DNA of 64,000 nt, from the NCBI GenBank assembly GCA_012520995.1, contig JAAYNI010000080.1, positions 25,823-89,822 of the forward strand, given 5' to 3'. Shown in pieces: positions 2,019-47,088 of this stretch (position 1 is the first letter of the stretch; every line of letters starts with the position of its first letter). A program made the position numbers and the translations under genes. Under the pieces are notes generated by a model. The model did not search any database, was not told the DNA's origin, and worked only from the letters and a program-made list of their open reading frames with translations. The stretch comes from Candidatus Rifleibacteriota bacterium. Lineage in GTDB: Bacteria > Muiribacteriota > Ozemobacteria > Ozemobacterales > Ozemobacteraceae.

Positions 2019-3380
2019 CTAAGCGCCTTTAAAAAAGGCATTTACCGCCTCTTTGAGGGTTTTCACTTTAATTATACCTTTACCTGCTTCTATATCCGAA
2101 TAAGAAGAAACCATAATCTTTTTAAATCCAAAACGTCTGGCTTCAGCTATGCGTCTCGATAGCTGGCTCACAGGACGGATTTCACCAGAGAGAGTAACTT
2201 CACCTGCGCATATAGTATCTTTTGGAAAAGGTTTATCCATAAGGCTGCCAGCAAGAGCAAGAGCCAAAGGCAAATCGCCGCCTGGTTCAGAAAGTCTCAA
2301 GCCTCCTGCGACATTGGCATAAACATCTTTGTTATAAAATTTTACTCCGCCATGTCTCTCCAAAACAGCTATAAGCAATCCAAGCTTATTGGGATCCATC
2401 CCGGAAACCACTCTTCTGGGCATAGGCAAATAAGATTGAGTCACCAAAGCCTGGATCTCTGCCAAAATACAGCGACTGCCCTGCAAAAGCGGAGCAACCA
2501 ACACGCCTGGAGACTCTGTTCTGTTTTGATTGATAAAAATATCAGAGGGATTTATTACAGAAGTAAGCCCGTTATCAGTCATTTGAAAAACACTCACTTC
2601 ACCCGTGGCTCCGTAGCGATTTTTAAAAACGCGTAAAATGCGGAAGTTGGAATTGGTCTCACCTTCAAAATATAAAACCGTATCTACTATGTGTTCCAGA
2701 ATCTTGGGGCCTGCAATATTGCCGTCTTTGGTAACATGGCCTACTATAAACACAGGCAATTGTCTTTCTTTGCCAAACTTTGTCAACATTGAGGCACATT
2801 CCCTGATTTGTCCAACAGAACCGGGAGAAGATTCCAAATTAGGCGTGTAAACAGTCTGAATAGAGTCAACAATCAAGACTCGAGGCAAATAGGAAGCCAA
2901 AGCGTTCAAAGCCGAGTTCAGATTTTGTTCCGCAAGCAGATATATATCACTGCCATTGCCTATGCCAAGCCTGTCTGCACGCAGTTTTATCTGAGTCGCA
3001 GATTCTTCGCCTGAAATGTAAGCCACAGGCTTTATATTGACTCCAAGGCGTGAAATCAGCTGAAGCATGAAAGTAGACTTGCCTACCCCAGGCTCGCCGC
3101 CTATCAAAGTTATTCCGCCTGGCACAAGACCGCCGCCAATCATCTCATCGAAAACGTCTATGCCTGTCATCCAACGCTGAGTGCGTTCAGTTTTAATATC
3201 CCCGAGATTTTCTACTATGGCCAAGGTGCCGCCAGCCATGATATCGCCCCGGGAACCCTTAGGAACTTCTACTTCCTCCGCCAATGTATTCCATTCCTGA
3301 CAAGAAGAACATTGTCCTGCCCATTTTGGAAAACTTTGCCCACAACTCTGACACACATAAACTGTTTTAACTTTTGCCAT
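2019..3380 (-). CDS. radA: DNA repair protein RadA/Sms
   Basis: N-terminal C4 zinc finger CQSCG...CSSC, GGEPGVGKST, KNRYG motif, Lon-like C-terminus. Confidence 0.97.
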   Translation of the reverse strand: MAKVKTVYVCQSCGQSFPKWAGQCSSCQEWNTLAEEVEVPKGSRGDIMAGGTLAIVENLGDIKTERTQRWMTGIDVFDEMIGGGLVPGGITLIGGEPGVGKSTFMLQLISRLGVNIKPVAYISGEESATQIKLRADRLGIGNGSDIYLLAEQNLNSALNALASYLPRVLIVDSIQTVYTPNLESSPGSVGQIRECASMLTKFGKERQLPVFIVGHVTKDGNIAGPKILEHIVDTVLYFEGETNSNFRILRVFKNRYGATGEVSVFQMTDNGLTSVINPSDIFINQNRTESPGVLVAPLLQGSRCILAEIQALVTQSYLPMPRRVVSGMDPNKLGLLIAVLERHGGVKFYNKDVYANVAGGLRLSEPGGDLPLALALAGSLMDKPFPKDTICAGEVTLSGEIRPVSQLSRRIAEARRFGFKKIMVSSYSDIEAGKGIIKVKTLKEAVNAFFKGA

Positions 3381-6234
3381 TGCCTTTTTTTGCTTTTTGC
3401 TTCAGCTCCTGTTTAAGATACTGTCCAGTTAAGGATTTTTTGTTAGCGGCCACCTTTTCAGGAGTTCCTTCTGCTACTATTTCACCGCCTAAATTGCCGC
3501 CTTTTGGACCAAGATCTATTATGTGATCCGCTACCTTTATTACATCAAGATTGTGCTCAATAATCAAGACAGTATTGCCTTTTTCCACAAGACGCTCCAA
3601 AATTGCCAATAAAGATTTTATGTCTTTAAAGTGCAAACCTGTAGTCGGTTCATCAAGCAAATAGAGAGTCGAGCCTGTCGCTATTTTGGAAAGCTCCGCA
3701 GCCAGCTTCATGCGTTGTGCCTCACCGCCTGAAAGAGTAGTAGCCGGTTGCCCCAAAGTCAGATAACCCAACCCCACGTCATGCAGTGCCTGAAGCCTGC
3801 GTTTTATGGCCGTAAAAGCCTCGAAAAACTCCAATGCTTCATCAACAGTCATAGCCAGCACTTCGGCAATACTTAAGCCTTTAAACTTGATTTTAAGGGT
3901 TTCCGAATTGAAACGCTGTCCCTTGCAATAATCACAAGTAACATAAACATCCGGCATAAAGTGCATTTCAATCTGCAATTCTCCCATGCCCTCGCAAGCA
4001 TCGCATCTGCCGCCTTTCACATTGAAACTGAATCGTCCTGGCGTATAACCTCGGGTTTTCGCCTCTTTGGTCTGCGCGAAAAGGTCTCTTATGTAAGAAA
4101 AAACGCCTGTATATGTTGCGGGATTAGATCGAGAACTCCTTCCGATCGGTGACTGGTCAATATTTACAACCTTGTCGATATTTTTAAGACCGGTTATCTT
4201 TTCGTAAGCTCCCACATCATATGTAGTCCGATAAACCATGTTGCTCAAAAGCGGAAATAAAGTATCATTAACCAAACTGGACTTTCCTGAGCCTGAAACA
4301 CCTGTAACAGCCACAAGTTTGCCCAGAGGAATATCCACATCAATATTTTTCAGATTGTTATGAGAAGCGCCTTTGAGCTTTATAAACTTCCCGCTTCCCT
4401 TACGTCTTTCTTTAGGAACTGGAATAAAATCTTCTCCGCTCAAAAAACTGCCCGTCACACTGTTTTTGTCTGCCGCTATTTCAGCAGGAGTACCTTGAGC
4501 TACGAGATAACCGCCTTCTTTGCCGGCAGCCGGCCCCAAGTCGATAATCTGGTCAGCCTCAAACATTATCTCTTTGTCATGCTCCACAACCAAAACAGTG
4601 TTCCCCAAGTCTCTAAGGCCTTTTAAAGTTTCTATCAACTTAGAGTTGTCGCTCGGATGAAGACCAATGCTAGGCTCATCCAAAACATAGGTAATGCCTA
4701 CCAGAGCTGATCCGATCTGAGTCGCCAGTCTGATTCGCTGTGCTTCACCGCCTGATAAAGTGCCGGAAGCTCTGTTTAAATCCAAATAATCCAAACCGAC
4801 ATCGTTCAGAAAATTTAAACGGTTTACAATTTGTGCCAAAACCTTGCCGCTAATTTGCCTTTCTTTTTCTGTCAGCTCCAAATTATTGAAAAAATCTACG
4901 AGTTCTTTGATGGTATGAGAAGAAAGCTCATAAATATTTTCTCCGGCTATTCTTACTGAAAGAGCAGCCGGATTCAAACGTCTGCCCTTGCAGTCATCAC
5001 AAGGAAGCATTTTCATAAATCTTTCATAAAAGCGCCTAGCCATATCCGAGCGAGTTTCCGCATGGCGTCTTGCGACTATATTCACTAAACCTTCGTAGGG
5101 TCTTGAAATCTCGCCTTTTACGCCTCTGCCGGAAAGAGCAACCTTTACAGGCTCATCACCCGTGCCGTAAAGAATAACATTTTGAGCCTTTTCCGAAAGA
5201 TCTTTAAAAGGCGTATCCAAAGAAAAGTCATATTGTTTAGACAATGCTTTGAGCCACCTGTTCGAAATAGAACCATCGAGCAAGAAGTTCTGAGCTCTGA
5301 TAGCTCCTTTGGATATAGGCAAAGACCAATCTTTAATAGTAAGTCCCGGATCCGGCACCAGTTTGTGGCCTATACCCGAGCAAGCAGAACAAGAACCATA
5401 AGGAGCATTAAAAGAAAACAGCCTTGGCTTTATATCGGGAAGAGAAATACCGCAATCGTTGCACATGTGGTTTTCATTGTACATTTTTTCGAAGGGTTCG
5501 TCAGAATCGGGCAAATTCACCATTGTCAGTACATGACCTTCCGACATTTTAAACGAAAGTTCCACAGCTTCCATTACCCGCTGAATATTATCTTCTTTGG
5601 AGGCTTTATCGGCCATAAGTCTGTCTATGACGACTTCTATATTGTGTTTCAGATTTCGATCCAGCTTAGGCATTTCTTCGTCCAAGAGCCACATATCGCC
5701 ATCGACTCTGACTCTGCTCATGCCTTCTTTTAAGAATTCCTCGAAAACCTTGCCGTATTCACCTTTACGGCCTCTTACAACAGGCGACATTAAAGTAATG
5801 GCAGTTCCGTCAGGATATTTCAAGATTTCTTGAGCAATTTGAATAGGGGAAGAAATCTCAACAGGCTTGCCGCACTCTGGACAATGAGGCTTTCCAATAG
5901 CGGCAAACAGCAGCCTGAAATAGTCATAAATTTCTGTAACTGTGCCCACAGTAGAGCGAGGGTTATTGGAGACCGTCTTTTGCTGTATAGCAATTGTCGG
6001 AGAAAGTCCCTCGATACTTACAACATCAGGTTTTTCAACTTTTTGCAGAAATTGGCGGGCATAGGAAGAAAGGGATTCCATGTATCGCCTTTGCCCTTCA
6101 GCATGAATAGTATCAAATGCCAAAGAAGACTTTCCTGAACCTGAAACCCCGGTTATGACTGTTAGAGCGTTTGAAGGAATAACAAGATCAATGCTTTTAA
6201 GGTTATGCACCTTAGCTTTTTCTATGCGAATCAT
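3367..6234 (-). CDS. uvrA: Excinuclease ABC subunit A
   Basis: Two ABC ATPase modules (GVSGSGKSS twice, LSGGEAQR twice), zinc fingers, 955 aa. Confidence 0.98.
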
Positions 6235-42282: not shown

Positions 42283-42320
42283 AAGCCAGATTCGAGTCCA
42301 TTAACGTCTAAAAACAACGG

Positions 42321-42353
42321 AGGCCGCATGTGACTTTTTGCCGCATGCGGCCT
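42321..42353. other. Intra-operon hairpin between pntA parts
   Basis: aggccgcatg-N13-catgcggcct, a perfect 10-bp stem. Confidence 0.45.
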
Positions 42354-42372
42354 TAATCTTAGGAGAATATCA

Positions 42373-42690
42373 ATGACTGTTTACAACTGGGCTGCGCTGG
42401 TAGTCTTCGCAGTTGCCACATTTTTAGGCTACAAGGTAATAAACACTGTACCAAGCCTTTTACACACCCCCTTAATGTCCGGCATGAACGCCTTTTCAGG
42501 CGTAACACTGCTAGGTTGTCTCACCGCAACCGCCACAGCTGTTGCGGTCGGCGGATGGCTAGGTCGTCTGCTTGGCGCTATAGCAATTATACTTGCAATG
42601 ATAAATCTTGTAGGCGGCTTTGCCGTGACTCACAGAATGCTTAAAATGTTCAGGTCAAAAGATGACCATAAAAAAGAAGGAGACAATTAA
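42373..42690 (+). CDS. NAD(P) transhydrogenase subunit alpha part 2 (membrane)
   Basis: LHTPLMSGMNAFSG and GGFAVTHRMLKMF motifs. Confidence 0.95.
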   Translation: MTVYNWAALVVFAVATFLGYKVINTVPSLLHTPLMSGMNAFSGVTLLGCLTATATAVAVGGWLGRLLGAIAIILAMINLVGGFAVTHRMLKMFRSKDDHKKEGDN

Positions 42691-42692
42691 TC

Positions 42693-45600
42693 ATGCAGCC
42701 TGAACATATATATTATTATTTAGTCTCAATAATTTTCTCTGTCATAGTCCTTTGGGGCATAAGCATGATGAGCAAGGTCAAAACTGCCGTAAAAGGCAAC
42801 CTCATAGGCTCGGCCATCATGGTTCTCGCTATTGGCCTAACTCTCTGGAATTTCAATATTTTCTCAGTAGCAGATTTATGGATAGCTATGCTAATAGGCA
42901 CAGCTCTGGGACTCTGGATGGCCAACAAAGTAAAAATGATCCAAATGCCTCAAATGGTTGGGCTTTTAAACGGATTTGGCGGCGGAGCTTCCATGATAGC
43001 TGGCATCTTAAGCCTTTCAAACCATTACCATTCTCTTGCAACAGAAGCTGTCAAAGGAGCCACTCTAAACAGTTTCGGTCTTTTAACAGCTGCTTTAGCT
43101 GTCTTTACAGGAGCTTTTACTCTTTCGGGCAGTATAGTGGCAGCAGGCAAGCTCCATGGAAAAATCTCGCAAAAACCTAAGTTTTTCCAAGACAACCCTG
43201 ATCGTCATGCCCTGTTATTCACCATAACCCTTATCATCGCCTTGGTAAGCGTTGTTATGATAGCTTTCACGCAAACAGGCGGAATGATCGCATTGATCAC
43301 TGTCTGCACTATTGTAAGTCTTGTATTTGGCGTATTGTTTGCAACACCCGTAGGCGGTGCCGATATGCCCATAACTATCTCACTGCTTAACTCGATGTCA
43401 GGGGTTGCAGGCTCTATAGCAGGTATGGCTATTGATGACTTCCTGCTCGTAGCAGTCGGCGGAATAGTCGGAGCTTCTGGTCTCTTCTTGACGCAAATTA
43501 TGAGCAAGGCAATGAACAGGCCTCTTAAATCTATCCTCTTCCCTAGAGGTTCTAAAAAGAAAACCGATAAAGAAGAGAAAAAATCCGCTCCTGCTCAAAA
43601 ATCAGAACCTCCGAAAACCAAAGAAACTGAAAAAACCGCCGATTCCAAAGATCCGGCTCAATGGCTTAAAGACGCGAAAACCGTTATTATCACTCCTGGT
43701 TACGGCATGGCGGTAGCTCAAGCCCAATCCCTTGTAAAACAGCTTTCAGACAAGCTTGAAGGCATGGGCAAAAAAGTCGAATTCGCGATCCACTCGGTTG
43801 CGGGAAGAATGCCTGGCCACATGAACATACTTCTCGCGGAAGTTGACGTGCCTTATGAAAAGCTTCACGAAATGGATGACATCAACCCGAAATTCAAAGA
43901 AACAGATGTCGCAATAGTGATCGGCGCAAACGACGTTGTAAATCCGGCTGCAAATACCGTTGAAAACACACCTCTCTCGGGAGTTCCTATACTCAACGTA
44001 TCCGAAGCCAAAAAGGTGATTATCTGCAACTTTGATAAAAAACCTGGCTACGCAGGAGTCGATAACCCGCTTTATGAAGAAGGCAAAAAGAATGTCGCTT
44101 TGATGCTGGGAGACGCAAAAGACTCACTCAAAACTTTGCTCGAAGGCCTAAGCTCAGCTTCAAAACCTGCTGCTGAAAGCCAAAAGGCAGCGAATAAAGA
44201 TAATCCTGCCGAATGGCTCAAAGAAGCCAAAACCGTCATTATCACCCCAGGCTACGGCATGGCAGTTGCACAAGCCCAATCCCTTGTAAAACAGCTTTCA
44301 GATAAGCTTGAAAGCATGGGCAAAAAAGTCGAATTTGCGATTCACTCGGTTGCAGGCAGAATGCCTGGCCACATGAACATACTGCTCGCTGAAGTTGACG
44401 TGCCTTACGAAAAGCTCCACGAGATGGACGATATAAATCCGAAATTTAAAGAAACAGATGTAGCAATAGTAATCGGCGCAAACGATGTTGTGAACCCGGC
44501 TGCTAATACAGTAGCGGATACTCCGCTCTCTGGAGTGCCAATACTTAACGTCTCCGAAGCCAAAAAGGTCATTATCTGCAACTTTGATAAAAAGCCTGGT
44601 TACGCAGGAGTGGATAATCCGCTTTATGAAGAAGGCAAAAAGAATGTCGCTTTGATGCTGGGAGACGCGAAAGACTCACTCAAAACCTTGCTTGAAGGCC
44701 TAAGCTCAACTCCCAAACCCGCCGCTGAAAGCAAAAAAGCAGAAGCCGATGACAACAATCCTGCCGAATGGCTTAAAGACGCGAAAACTGTTATTATCAC
44801 CCCAGGTTACGGCATGGCGGTAGCTCAAGCCCAGTCACTTGTAAAACAGCTTTCAGATAAGCTTGAAGGCATGGGCAAAAAGGTCGAATTCGCGATCCAC
44901 TCGGTCGCGGGAAGAATGCCTGGCCACATGAACATACTTCTCGCGGAAGTTGACGTTCCTTACGAAAAACTTCACGAAATGGATGATATAAACCCGAAAT
45001 TCAAAGAAACAGATGTCGCAATAGTAATCGGCGCAAACGATGTTGTGAACCCGGCTGCCAATACAGTAGAAGACACCCCGCTCTCAGGAGTTCCCATACT
45101 TAACGTATCGGAAGCCAAAAAGGTCATTATCTGCAACTTCGATAAAAAGCCAGGTTACGCAGGAGTTGATAACCCGCTTTATGAAGAAGGCAAAAAAAAT
45201 GTCGCTTTGATGCTGGGAGACGCAAAAGACTCACTCAAATCTCTCTTGGAAGGTTTAAGCTCTACTGCAAAACCTGCCACAACTGACAAGAAAGCCGCTT
45301 CTTCAACGAAAGATCCGGCCAAGTGGCTGAAAGATGCTAAAAGTGTTATAATTACTCCTGGCTACGGCATGGCAGTCGCGCAAGCCCAGTCGCTTGTAAA
45401 ACAGTTAGCCGACAAGCTTGAAGGCATGGGCAAAAAAGTCGAATTCGCGATCCACTCGGTCGCGGGAAGAATGCCTGGCCATATGAACATACTTCTCGCA
45501 GAAGTTGACGTGCCTTATGAAAAACTTCACGAAATGGACGATATAAACCCCGAGTTCAAAAACACGGATGTAGCTATAGTTATAGGTGCAAACGACGTTG

Positions 45601-45815
45601 TGAACCCGGCCGCCAACACAGTTGAAGATACGCCGCTTTCGGGAGTTCCCATACTCAACGTCTCTGAAGCGAAAAAAGTGATAATTTGCAACTTCGACAA
45701 AAAACCCGGTTATGCCGGAGTAGATAACCCGCTCTACGAAGACGGGCAAGAAAATGTAGCCCTTATGCTTGGAGATGCGAAAGACTCACTTAAATCACTT
45801 TTGGAAAAACTCTAA
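42693..45815 (+). CDS. pntB: NAD(P) transhydrogenase subunit beta with four tandem domain III copies
   Basis: Membrane part with MPQMVGLLNGFGG, GGADMP, LLNS, KAMNR; then four copies of PGYGMAVAQ / HSVAGRMPGHMN / GANDVVNPAA / GYAGVDNPL / GDAK. Confidence 0.95.
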   Translation: MQPEHIYYYLVSIIFSVIVLWGISMMSKVKTAVKGNLIGSAIMVLAIGLTLWNFNIFSVADLWIAMLIGTALGLWMANKVKMIQMPQMVGLLNGFGGGASMIAGILSLSNHYHSLATEAVKGATLNSFGLLTAALAVFTGAFTLSGSIVAAGKLHGKISQKPKFFQDNPDRHALLFTITLIIALVSVVMIAFTQTGGMIALITVCTIVSLVFGVLFATPVGGADMPITISLLNSMSGVAGSIAGMAIDDFLLVAVGGIVGASGLFLTQIMSKAMNRPLKSILFPRGSKKKTDKEEKKSAPAQKSEPPKTKETEKTADSKDPAQWLKDAKTVIITPGYGMAVAQAQSLVKQLSDKLEGMGKKVEFAIHSVAGRMPGHMNILLAEVDVPYEKLHEMDDINPKFKETDVAIVIGANDVVNPAANTVENTPLSGVPILNVSEAKKVIICNFDKKPGYAGVDNPLYEEGKKNVALMLGDAKDSLKTLLEGLSSASKPAAESQKAANKDNPAEWLKEAKTVIITPGYGMAVAQAQSLVKQLSDKLESMGKKVEFAIHSVAGRMPGHMNILLAEVDVPYEKLHEMDDINPKFKETDVAIVIGANDVVNPAANTVADTPLSGVPILNVSEAKKVIICNFDKKPGYAGVDNPLYEEGKKNVALMLGDAKDSLKTLLEGLSSTPKPAAESKKAEADDNNPAEWLKDAKTVIITPGYGMAVAQAQSLVKQLSDKLEGMGKKVEFAIHSVAGRMPGHMNILLAEVDVPYEKLHEMDDINPKFKETDVAIVIGANDVVNPAANTVEDTPLSGVPILNVSEAKKVIICNFDKKPGYAGVDNPLYEEGKKNVALMLGDAKDSLKSLLEGLSSTAKPATTDKKAASSTKDPAKWLKDAKSVIITPGYGMAVAQAQSLVKQLADKLEGMGKKVEFAIHSVAGRMPGHMNILLAEVDVPYEKLHEMDDINPEFKNTDVAIVIGANDVVNPAANTVEDTPLSGVPILNVSEAKKVIICNFDKKPGYAGVDNPLYEDGQENVALMLGDAKDSLKSLLEKL
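43650..45815 (+). repeat. Four tandem repeats of about 553 bp encoding PntB domain III
   Basis: Units start at 43650, 44202, 44757 and 45312 (periods 552, 555, 555 bp); many synonymous differences; distinct linkers. Confidence 0.97.
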
Positions 45816-46534
45816 TGACTATAGCGAATAAATATGCGGACAGGACAGTTCCTTCAATAACTGAACAGATTATGCAGCTAAGACAAATTTACACAGATCT
45901 CTTTTTCAAACTTATATCTTTCACTCTAGATGATGAATTTTTCCAATATATGGGCGAAGCCTTGGAATTTTTCTACAATCTGGAAGAAGGCGACGAATAC
46001 GAGTTTGATGCTGAAAATGAACTGCTCTTTCTTTCATGGTATCTGCTTGATGACGCTGACGCATATGGAAACGCTCTCATTGATGAGTTTCTTAGAAGAC
46101 ACGCTGGCAGCGATCTGCTTTCCGTCACGGAAAAGCAGATCGCCGTAGCTTTGAAGCAAACCTATTTATCAGTTTATACTGTTGAAGAAGTGACTCCAGG
46201 AGAATCAATGATTCTTAAGGATCTGTTCAGCGGCAAGACTTATAAAGTATTAGAAGCTTCCGGAACAAAAGTGATTGAAAAGGGCTCTACAGTTCATACC
46301 AGACTTCTGCTATTAGGCAAAACCTCTTTCATGGTAGGCGCCGCAGTGGTAATGACTCCGGAAATGGGTCCGGCAATAGCGGAGTTTATAACAGAACAAT
46401 ACAAAGAACAGTGTGAAGAAGGTTATAAGGCTTCTTTCAAAGACTTTCTGAAAAACAGCGGTGAATTAGTCACTTGGTGGCTGAGAGCCAATGAATATAA
46501 AGATGTGCCTAACGCGTCCACAGAACTCTTATGA
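45815..46534 (+). CDS. Hypothetical acidic protein translationally coupled to pntB
   Basis: TAATG overlap with the pntB stop; 239-aa ORF with normal composition; no family recognised with confidence. Confidence 0.75.
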   Translation: MTIANKYADRTVPSITEQIMQLRQIYTDLFFKLISFTLDDEFFQYMGEALEFFYNLEEGDEYEFDAENELLFLSWYLLDDADAYGNALIDEFLRRHAGSDLLSVTEKQIAVALKQTYLSVYTVEEVTPGESMILKDLFSGKTYKVLEASGTKVIEKGSTVHTRLLLLGKTSFMVGAAVVMTPEMGPAIAEFITEQYKEQCEEGYKASFKDFLKNSGELVTWWLRANEYKDVPNASTELL

Positions 46535-47088
46535 AGGAAAAAAACACCAAGACAGTAACTGTATTTTGTGCCTCTTCAGACAATCTTTCTGAGCAAATAA
46601 AGCTCTTATCAGCAAGATTCGCTGAGCTTTTGGCTAAAAAAAATTGCCACATGATATACGGCGGTACTTCTACAGGCCTTATGGGAACAATAGCAAACGC
46701 TTATAAAGAAGCGGGAGGCCATCTTATAGGAATTGTGCCTGAATATTTCATCAAAAGAGGCGAAAAATACAGCCTCTTGGATGAAACTCACTACGTTTCC
46801 TCTGTAAGCGAACGCAAACAGATGATGGTAAAACTCTCTGACGCTCTGATTATGCTGCCAGGCGGAATAGGAACCTATGACGAGTTCTTTGACGCGCTAG
46901 CGCGAAAACAGCTCGGACAATGCGTGGCCTCCATTTACATTTTTAATGCCTGCGGCTTTTATGACAAGTTTCTGGAAATGCTTGCTTATGGAGTAGAAAA
47001 TGGAGCCATAACGAGTGAAACAATGCAGCTTTTCAAGGTATTCGACTCTCCCGAGAAACTGGCGGAAGACATTAACTTAAAACAGTGA
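46531..47088 (+). CDS. LOG-family (TIGR00730) nucleoside monophosphate phosphoribohydrolase
   Basis: VFCASS, YGG...GLMG, ERKQMM, PGGIGTYDE. Confidence 0.92.
   Translation: MKEKNTKTVTVFCASSDNLSEQIKLLSARFAELLAKKNCHMIYGGTSTGLMGTIANAYKEAGGHLIGIVPEYFIKRGEKYSLLDETHYVSSVSERKQMMVKLSDALIMLPGGIGTYDEFFDALARKQLGQCVASIYIFNACGFYDKFLEMLAYGVENGAITSETMQLFKVFDSPEKLAEDINLKQ

Follow-up and report, generated by a model that had tools for sequence, protein, structure and literature searches.

Structural and kinetic models of membrane transhydrogenase, drawn from the E. coli, T. thermophilus, and mitochondrial (NNT) enzymes, assume one dIII per protomer and an anti-phase flipping between dI and dII. In the three-subunit type, represented by the structures from T. 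thermophilus (PDB 4O9U, 4O9P, 4J16) and R. rubrum (PDB 1HZZ, 1F8G), a soluble dI (PntAA), a 4-TM alpha2 subunit (PntAB), and a beta subunit of nine TM helices plus dIII (PntB) are encoded in that operon order. In the E. coli PntAB (PDB 9L76, 9UUY, and others; PMC13635403), by contrast with the locus described here, dI is fused to TM1-4 and is tethered to the membrane part, with one head per beta. All described enzymes share a 1:1:1 domain stoichiometry with one dIII per beta.

We analyzed a stretch of 64,000 nucleotides (the window) from a Candidatus Rifleibacteriota bacterium, which contains a transhydrogenase operon with the same subunits and gene order as the T. thermophilus and R. rubrum enzymes and with the catalytic dI and dIII motifs of both. 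Unlike any of these enzymes, the beta subunit carries four dIII heads rather than one.

Operon organization and channel residues

The pntAA-pntAB-pntB operon (Table 1) is best read as encoding a three-subunit membrane transhydrogenase, in which the beta subunit bears four dIII heads on flexible Ala-rich tethers. As in other enzymes of this type, dI and the 4-TM alpha2 subunit each have a separate gene in the operon. The pntAA product scored 299 bits against the R. rubrum dI (297–299 bits over the T. thermophilus and R. rubrum structures) and keeps the Arg, Gln, Asp, and Ser of the RxxRAQxMDxxxS motif, as well as the NAD-specifying Asp (AADIR). The spacer that follows it folds into a hairpin, with an MFE of -27.7 kcal/mol (z = -3.0) that was equalled by 0 of 200 shuffles, and most multi-head operons likewise have a structured spacer 3′ of pntAA; conceivably, the hairpin sets the dI:beta expression ratio. 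At the other end of the operon, a 239-aa ORF overlapping the pntB stop was considered as a conserved accessory gene and rejected, given that no homologue lies beside pntB in 80 loci.

Table 1. Features of the transhydrogenase operon, with positions in the window.
Feature	Position	Strand	Basis or remark
pntAA, free soluble dI, NAD(H)-binding, 387 aa	41119..42282	+	Pfam AlaDh_PNT_N + AlaDh_PNT_C
RNA hairpin, 13-bp stem, in 90-nt pntAA/pntAB spacer	42320..42354	+	Folding energy
pntAB, alpha2 membrane subunit, 4 TM, 105 aa	42373..42690	+	Pfam PNTB_4TM; aligns to T. thermophilus alpha2
pntB, whole gene, 1040 aa plus stop, 110.9 kDa	42693..45815	+	Single ORF, Pfam PNTB
dII membrane domain, residues 1-286, nine predicted TM helices	42693..43550	+	AF2, alignment to E. 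coli PntB
Linker dII-head 1, residues 287-319, Lys/Glu/Pro/Thr-rich	43551..43649	+	pLDDT <50 at 287-318
dIII head 1, residues 320-486	43650..44150	+	Loop E N-F-D-K-K; ~165-171 bits vs solved dIII structures
Linker 1, residues 487-503	44151..44201	+	pLDDT <50 at 489-502
dIII head 2, residues 504-670	44202..44702	+	4 core differences from head 1
Linker 2, residues 671-688	44703..44756	+	pLDDT <50 at 673-687
dIII head 3, residues 689-855	44757..45257	+	2 core differences from head 1
Linker 3, residues 856-873	45258..45311	+	pLDDT <50 at 858-871
dIII head 4, residues 874-1040, most diverged	45312..45812	+	10 core differences from head 1; dS to others 1.2-2.1

The Pfam PNTB profile (PF02233) matched the pntB product in four stretches, for a total of 1282.6 bits (cut-off 31.7), the best of which covers profile positions 3–454 of 456. 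The best-scoring solved relative of this subunit is the E. coli PntB (322 bits, over residues 11–461 of the E. coli protein), and the match to the T. thermophilus PntB scored 264 bits. An earlier, sequence-only reading of this DNA had described a PntB of about 110 kDa whose membrane domain is normal and is followed by four dIII modules, all complete; the Pfam, repeat, and alignment data agree with this description, as does the mass computed from the ORF (Table 1).

The AF2 model of dII comprises nine long helices (H3-26 through H250-273). Aligned to the E. coli PntB, the stretch 'GGADMPITISLLNSMSG' matches the dII motifs GGADMP and LNSxSG, which are shared with the E. coli PntAB along with the dIII fold, and the E. 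coli Asp213 and Asn222 are also kept. The channel histidine is absent at both of its known positions. The beta-His91 present in E. coli is replaced by Asn, as it is in T. thermophilus, and alpha2 position 42, which holds the channel His in T. thermophilus, is Ser here. The same pair of beta-Asn and alpha2-Ser occurs in 72 of the 80 related loci.

The four dIII heads and their linkers

The DNA repeat unit starts at 43638, 44190, 44745, and 45300 (period 552/555/555); Tandem Repeats Finder returned nothing, its longest period (500) being below the 555-nt unit. The head starts proposed in the sequence-only reading coincide with the 'D/N-P-A-x-W-L-K' start of each dIII, and a recount of core differences from the first copy (residues 324–486 and the equivalent stretches) gave numbers identical to those reported in it (Table 1). 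In pairwise comparisons, the heads are 79–91% identical in DNA, with 48–108 of 513 positions differing, and differ at 6–18 of 171 residues in protein. With dS of 0.45–2.1 across the pairs and dN/dS of 0.034–0.051, decaying duplicates are ruled out, and purifying selection acts strongly on every head. The repeat is free of stop codons and frameshifts.

All four heads contain the dIII core motifs PGYGMA, HPVAGRMPGHMN (His345, Arg350), GAND (Asp392), and the GYAG of loop E, with a Ser in place of Pro346. GYG, HxVAGRMPGHMN, GAND (E. coli Asp392), and loop E are retained throughout. Among 39 four-head proteins, these motifs are invariant, conservation per head is equal (0.78–0.79), and no alignment column contains head-specific residues, which rules out sub-functionalised heads. 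By this comparison, the heads are equivalent rather than specialised by position. The same equal conservation and lack of head-specific residues disfavour the role of nucleotide sink or sensor that had been suggested for the chain of heads. Equal conservation could partly stem from gene conversion instead of equal function.

Purifying selection or gene conversion had been invoked earlier to explain the similarity of the copies, and both were found to contribute, selection strongly and conversion to a small extent. In a Sawyer-type test, one of the six head pairs was significant, by one patch between copies 1 and 2 (P=0.003), and mosaic site patterns among the heads indicate that some exchange has occurred. 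The identical patches noted previously do exist but are short, with no identical run longer than 50 nt. Gene conversion was accordingly rejected as the main source of head similarity in the window protein.

The linkers between heads span 17–18 aa when measured between the D/N-P-A-x-W-L-K and L-E-G-L head boundaries, or 21–22 aa by the profile core from W-L-K, either of which is close to the earlier estimate of about 20 aa. Ala, Ser, Lys, and Pro are abundant in them, and in homologues the median linker is 18 aa long, with 24% Ala. The whole AF2 model has a pTM of 0.39, and pLDDT is <50 in each of the four linkers; by this prediction, the tethers are disordered or flexible.

Given that the source is a metagenome, that Logan contigs break within the repeat, and that no Nanopore run is listed, the four copies might be attributed to misassembly, to mixed strains, or to a recent duplication now in decay, with only one head that matters. 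We regard this as extremely improbable. Copy-specific contig pieces bridge the junctions between heads 1 and 2 (44103-44300), 2 and 3 (44639-44912), and 3 and 4 (45210-45440) with 0 mismatches, and all three junctions are covered in two DNA runs, one from a 2016 and one from a separate 2024 study, as well as in RNA run X4. RNA run X10 is without the 2/3 junction piece, and the linker 1 junction is bridged in two DNA and two RNA runs. The depth of the junction pieces approximates that of the single-copy flanks, no deletion joints were observed, and an identical PntB protein is present on a separately assembled metagenome contig. Each copy also has its own sequence, with one difference every ~5–10 nt, the frame is intact with dN/dS of 0.04 at dS up to 2, and the architecture is common to hundreds of homologues. 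The gene is real and transcribed, including in biogas reactors (metatranscriptomes), and the earlier argument against an assembly duplication is upheld.

Multi-head PntB and loop E in other organisms

The sequence-only reading had implied that a four-head PntB is rare, which is not the case in public data: among the best 120 homologues, 112 are four-headed and 7 five-headed. It had also raised the prospect that such proteins are both common and already described. The former proved correct; as to the latter, full-text searches of openly accessible papers turned up no description of a multi-dIII PntB, and there is none in PMC7614955. Proteins with 2–5 heads are found across Bacteroidales, Desulfovibrio, many Clostridia, and the present Riflebacteria-like organism, with 2–4 heads in named species of Porphyromonas, Dysgonomonas, Petrimonas, and Desulfovibrio and in many Clostridia, and the heads are positional orthologues between close species. 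Annotation pipelines label these multi-head proteins as ordinary PntB.

In all solved dIII structures, the Lys424-Arg425-Ser426 motif of loop E makes the 2′-phosphate contact that marks NADP(H) binding. This motif is present in E. coli and takes the form K-R-G/S in T. thermophilus and R. rubrum, whereas all four heads of the present protein have N-F-D in its place (N-F-D-K-K). Neither this replacement nor the missing channel histidine was mentioned in the sequence-only reading. The N-x-D form occurs in 477 of 484 heads of homologues, and N-[FYL]-D versus K-R-[SG] divides the representatives cleanly into two classes (72 versus 83). At E. coli position 428, 83% of N-x-D heads have a Lys or Arg, which is rare there in K-R-S heads and could replace the charge lost from the 2′-phosphate motif. 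The holders of N-x-D, histidine-less PntAB are strict anaerobes. Entamoeba may be the source of a characterised N-x-D enzyme.

The clean split in loop E, the Asn and Ser at the two histidine positions here and in most related loci, and the strictly anaerobic holders would all fit a distinct functional class, with another cofactor, another mode of NADP(H) binding, or a Na+ channel, and with head multiplication adapted to that chemistry. We consider this unlikely, given that dI is canonical and of the NAD(H) type, so that a second NAD(H) site would lead to no net reaction, and that the residue at 428 could compensate for the charge. The three traits are, moreover, separable: N-x-D occurs with a single head in some PntBs, Desulfovibrio combines N-x-D and 3–4 heads with His91, and an independent set of two-head PntBs has the canonical K-R-S motif together with His91. 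These separate occurrences led us to reject the idea that head multiplication results from N-x-D or from loss of the histidine. Head multiplication arose at least twice in PntB evolution.

A separate dI accompanies the multiplied heads. It is a separate ORF in 79 of 79 loci that include upstream sequence, in all three K-R-S two-head operons, and likewise in the operon with five heads; dI is separate and untethered here and in every multi-head operon examined. All of the N-x-D clade is of the three-subunit type, as are the K-R-S relatives, single-head members included, so that this link may be a matter of phylogenetic inertia.

Possible working modes of the heads

The E2 chain of 2-oxo-acid dehydrogenases carries 1–3 tandem lipoyl domains. 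The tandem ACPs of PUFA synthase are arranged as beads on a string (PMC3585217), and PUFA output rises with their number (PMC5067506). The dIII heads resemble these domains as near-identical mobile carriers on Ala/Pro-rich flexible linkers, with a copy number that varies between species. There is no homology between them, and the likeness is one of working mode, not of family; in addition, ACP and lipoyl carriers hold a covalent prosthetic group, whereas dIII holds a non-covalently occluded nucleotide and gates an ion channel.

Our leading reading, which we propose tentatively and without calling it probable, is that the four heads could be equivalent functional units that act as interchangeable swinging carriers, sharing one ion channel and retaining free dI dimers. 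For hydride transfer, each head would dock face-up on a free dI dimer, and for ion-coupled nucleotide exchange it would dock face-down on the single dII channel of its own or the partner protomer. While some heads occupy dII, the spare ones would hold the free (dI)2 on the complex, lifting the constraint in three-subunit enzymes that one of two heads is always on (dI)2. They would also keep the dI and dII sites more fully occupied, and hence raise the flux per membrane complex. In principle, the heads would work as tandem ACP or lipoyl domains do. In canonical enzymes, turnover is considered to be limited by NADP(H) release and not by carrier availability, so that more carriers need not speed the cycle.

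A different division of labor would have head 1 alone coupled to the channel, with heads 2–4 and free dI dimers forming tethered dI2-dIII complexes for uncoupled transhydrogenation or as a nucleotide buffer, the N-x-D loop E having loosened the grip on NADP(H) such that exchange needs no dII. Isolated dI2-dIII complexes (PDB 1HZZ, 2BRU, 4J16) are competent in hydride transfer, all heads are without Lys424, Arg425, and Ser426, and the distal heads are furthest from dII. Nevertheless, this arrangement seems improbable to us, as uncoupled activity would short-circuit the ion-coupled one on the same enzyme, no position shows head-specific relaxation or specialisation, and the existence of two-head forms with the tight-binding K-R-S indicates that head multiplication needs no loosened site.

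Extending the proposal of interchangeable carriers to the other organisms, it is possible, if somewhat doubtful, that multi-head PntABs are an unrecognised mechanistic class of ion-translocating transhydrogenase in anaerobes, in which 2–5 equivalent dIII carriers would take turns at one channel and keep several free dI dimers bound, and in whose N-x-D, histidine-less majority (including the present protein) the cofactor handling or the coupling ion (e.g., Na+) would also be unlike that of any enzyme studied to date. If true, this class would break the strict 1:1:1 anti-phase two-head cycle behind all current models. As these models assume a single dIII per protomer, the natural, widespread, and strongly selected family with 2–5 heads per channel does not fit them and tests them directly. 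It bears on whether a head is bound to 'its' channel, on what limits turnover, and on how the attachment of free dI dimers is maintained, and its close relatives with two, three, or four heads provide a near ready-made head-number series.

Multi-head enzymes are probably a main link between NADH and NADPH in gut, oral, and digester anaerobes (Porphyromonas, Dysgonomonas, Desulfovibrio, Christensenella). Because of this probable role, and because the present gene is transcribed in biogas reactors, the altered 2′-phosphate motif and the absence of the channel histidine are relevant to models of redox and energy in anaerobe communities.

The four-head pntB gene and its distribution

The pnt operon of the window encodes the NAD(H)-binding domain dI (pntAA), the four-helix alpha2 subunit (pntAB) and the beta subunit (pntB). 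Four stretches of the pntB product are matched by Pfam PNTB (1282 bits in total), and a repeat search returned four DNA units in the gene, starting at 43638, 44190, 44745 and 45300 (spacing 552/555/555). The starts that the sequence-only reading had assigned to the copies of dIII, the mobile NADP(H)-carrying domain (hereafter head, numbered 1–4 along PntB), fall on the D/N-P-A-x-W-L-K motif that opens each head; over residues 324–486 that reading had counted the core differences (4, 2 and 10) correctly. Downstream, a 239-aa open reading frame assigned to DUF7986 (45815–46534) has its start codon overlapping the pntB stop (TAATG), and a LOG/SLOG-family gene (46531–47088) overlaps its end; neither adjoins pntB in 80 other loci.

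Coordinates of the pnt operon and of features in its products
Feature	Window position	Strand	Residues	Remark
pntAA	41119–42282	+		first operon gene
Hairpin, 13-bp stem	42320–42354			within spacer 42283–42372, between pntAA and pntAB
pntAB	42373–42690	+		second operon gene
alpha2 residue 42	42496–42498		42	Ser
pntB	42693–45815	+		single open frame, 1040 codons, 110.9 kDa
beta residue 91	42964–42966		91	Asn
dIII cores			324–486, 508–670, 693–855, 878–1039	heads 1–4
Loop E, N-F-D-K-K	44037–44051 (head 1)		449–453, 633–637, 818–822, 1003–1007	equivalent sites in heads 2–4

The stretch is present in at least 15 biogas or anaerobic-digester metagenome runs, dated 2015–2024, and in five metatranscriptome runs. 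Junctions were checked in two DNA runs, each from its own study (X1, 2016; X5, 2024), and two RNA runs (X4; X10, without the junction 2/3 piece). Each head was covered by copy-specific contig pieces with zero mismatches, and the inter-head junctions by pieces at 44103–44300, 44639–44912 and 45210–45440. Depth over the repeat pieces was 18–30 in X1 (single-copy flanks 25–28) and 6–14 in X5 (flanks 8). No deletion joints were seen in contigs of the two DNA and two RNA runs, and a separately assembled 21-kb contig encodes an identical PntB. The zero-mismatch junction pieces, flank-like depth and lack of deletion joints confirm the earlier argument against assembly duplication; the four-head finding is real.

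The rarity of four heads implied by that reading did not hold, as the 120 best homologues comprise 112 with four heads, 7 with five and 1 with three. A five-head gene sits in the same operon setting on five long contigs. Named holders, all annotated as plain PntB, include Porphyromonas cangingivalis, P. uenonis, P. bennonis, Dysgonomonas massiliensis and Desulfovibrio. GTDB species genomes yielded 80 loci with 1–4 heads, from Bacteroidales (Porphyromonas, Dysgonomonadaceae, Petrimonas, Prevotella), Desulfovibrio and many Clostridia (Mageeibacillus, Christensenella, others). In the literature covered by full-text searches and targeted reading, no multi-dIII PntB was described. Multi-head PntB is a widespread variant of a well-known enzyme, not unique to the window genome, and is apparently undescribed. 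In L020, L022, L024, L029, L031, L050, L054, L060, L061 and L075, alpha2 and beta are fused in one open frame, with dI still separate.

The window organism is diderm, as its TolC and BamB-like genes show, and is one more lineage with multi-head PntB. Its UvrA (3367–6234) is closest to Candidatus Riflebacteria (66–69% identity), whereas its PntB heads branch beside those of Clostridia (Mageeibacillus, Saccharofermentanales). Given these affinities and GC content (45.5% in pntB, 41.5% in the window), the pnt operon may have been acquired laterally.

Loop E and the channel histidines

Where E. coli contacts the 2′-phosphate through K424-R425-S426, followed by M-N, all four window heads have N-F-D-K-K in loop E. 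The N-[FYL]-D and K-R-[SG] classes split cleanly (72 versus 83 representatives), and E. coli position 428 is Lys/Arg in 83% of N-x-D heads but rarely in K-R-S heads, where Ser, Asn and Gly predominate, making it a candidate replacement charge. With Asn at beta residue 91 and Ser at alpha2 residue 42, neither known channel histidine (E. coli beta-His91, T. thermophilus alpha2-His42) is present in the window; both are likewise missing in 72 of 80 related loci. These residues might be taken to mark a class that uses another cofactor or ion, or binds NADP(H) differently, which we consider unlikely. The window dI is canonical, scoring 299 bits against R. rubrum dI and keeping both the Asp that specifies NAD and the four catalytic residues Arg, Gln, Asp and Ser. 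Multiple heads, the N-x-D loop and loss of the channel histidines are separable, because N-x-D also occurs in single-head PntBs and Desulfovibrio multi-head PntBs keep His91.

Selection and turnover among heads

Pairwise, the window's heads share 79–91% DNA identity and differ at 6–18 of 171 amino acids, with Nei-Gojobori dS from 0.45 (heads 1 and 3) up to 2.1 (heads 2 and 4) and dN/dS of 0.034–0.051. They form one clade (support 0.998), head 4 being the most diverged. A Sawyer-type permutation test gave one significant concordant run (heads 1 and 2, unit positions 435–477, P=0.003), and informative sites conflict (12|34, 9 sites; 13|24, 7; 14|23, 12), therefore some exchange has occurred between copies; the longest identical DNA run is only 50 nt. 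Of the purifying selection or gene conversion proposed earlier, selection is the main force and conversion minor: head likeness stems mainly from protein-level constraint on every head, not homogenisation. That the array is an artefact or a decaying duplication is extremely improbable.

When close species are compared, heads at the same position share 90–100% identity, more than the heads within one protein do, and are positional orthologues. At larger distances heads cluster by protein (23 of 61 proteins monophyletic), those of the window sharing 93–99% identity versus 78% to the closest other protein. Head number is evolutionarily dynamic, since it changes among close relatives (three in L014, two in L039) and within one Desulfovibrio genome (four in L011, three in L034). 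The latter two are pnt operons 48 kb apart in Desulfovibrio falkowii NZ_BAAFSG010000001; their heads 1–3 are 100% identical in protein, which may reflect a recent operon duplication plus head gain or loss. A separate two-head set of ~30 protein clusters has canonical K-R-S and beta-His91, thus head multiplication arose at least twice. In the K-R-S two-head proteins P0136, P0391–P0393 and P0395 (L081, 2554–4548), head 2 is only 45–49% identical to head 1 and has altered motifs (HPLAGHMPGHMN; KRGLGAGVAG); unlike the equivalent heads elsewhere, it may be specialised or degenerate.

Tethered heads and subunit expression

Across 39 four-head proteins, per-head conservation is equal (0.78–0.79), and no alignment column holds head-specific residues. 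Set beside this uniformity, a reading in which the distal heads are uncoupled seems rather improbable. Linkers in homologues span 14–27 aa (median 18); Ala makes up 24% of their residues, and Ser, Thr, Pro, Lys, Asp and Glu also occur. The AF2 model of the window PntB (pLDDT 76.5, pTM 0.39) predicts nine TM helices and four identical dIII folds, with pLDDT <50 in all four linkers, hence a beads-on-a-string model.

In current models, dIII shuttles occluded NADP(H) between dI, the site of hydride transfer, and the membrane domain dII, the site of ion-coupled nucleotide exchange. dI has its own gene in 79/79 related loci having upstream sequence, and the same is true of 3/3 two-head operons of the K-R-S class and of the five-head operon. 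According to a 2026 E. coli cryo-EM study, nothing links (dI)2 covalently to the rest of a three-subunit enzyme. With additional equivalent heads on flexible tethers, such an enzyme would no longer have to keep one of two heads on (dI)2 at all times, and occupancy of both docking sites, dI and dII, would rise. E2 chains, which carry tandem lipoyl domains, offer one parallel. The extra heads are also proposed to work like the tandem ACPs of PUFA synthases, which increase output (PMC5067506, PMC3585217). By analogy, PntB may tentatively be read as a multi-head carrier, a mechanism that we infer and hold as quite possible.

The hairpin in the pntAA-pntAB spacer (MFE −27.7 kcal/mol, z = −3.0) might set the dI:beta expression ratio. 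In counts uncorrected for phylogeny, a structured spacer of 75 nt or more lies downstream of pntAA in 6/6 four-head, 30/34 three-head and 13/20 two-head loci; in several complete single-head operons the spacer is only −4 to +23 nt.
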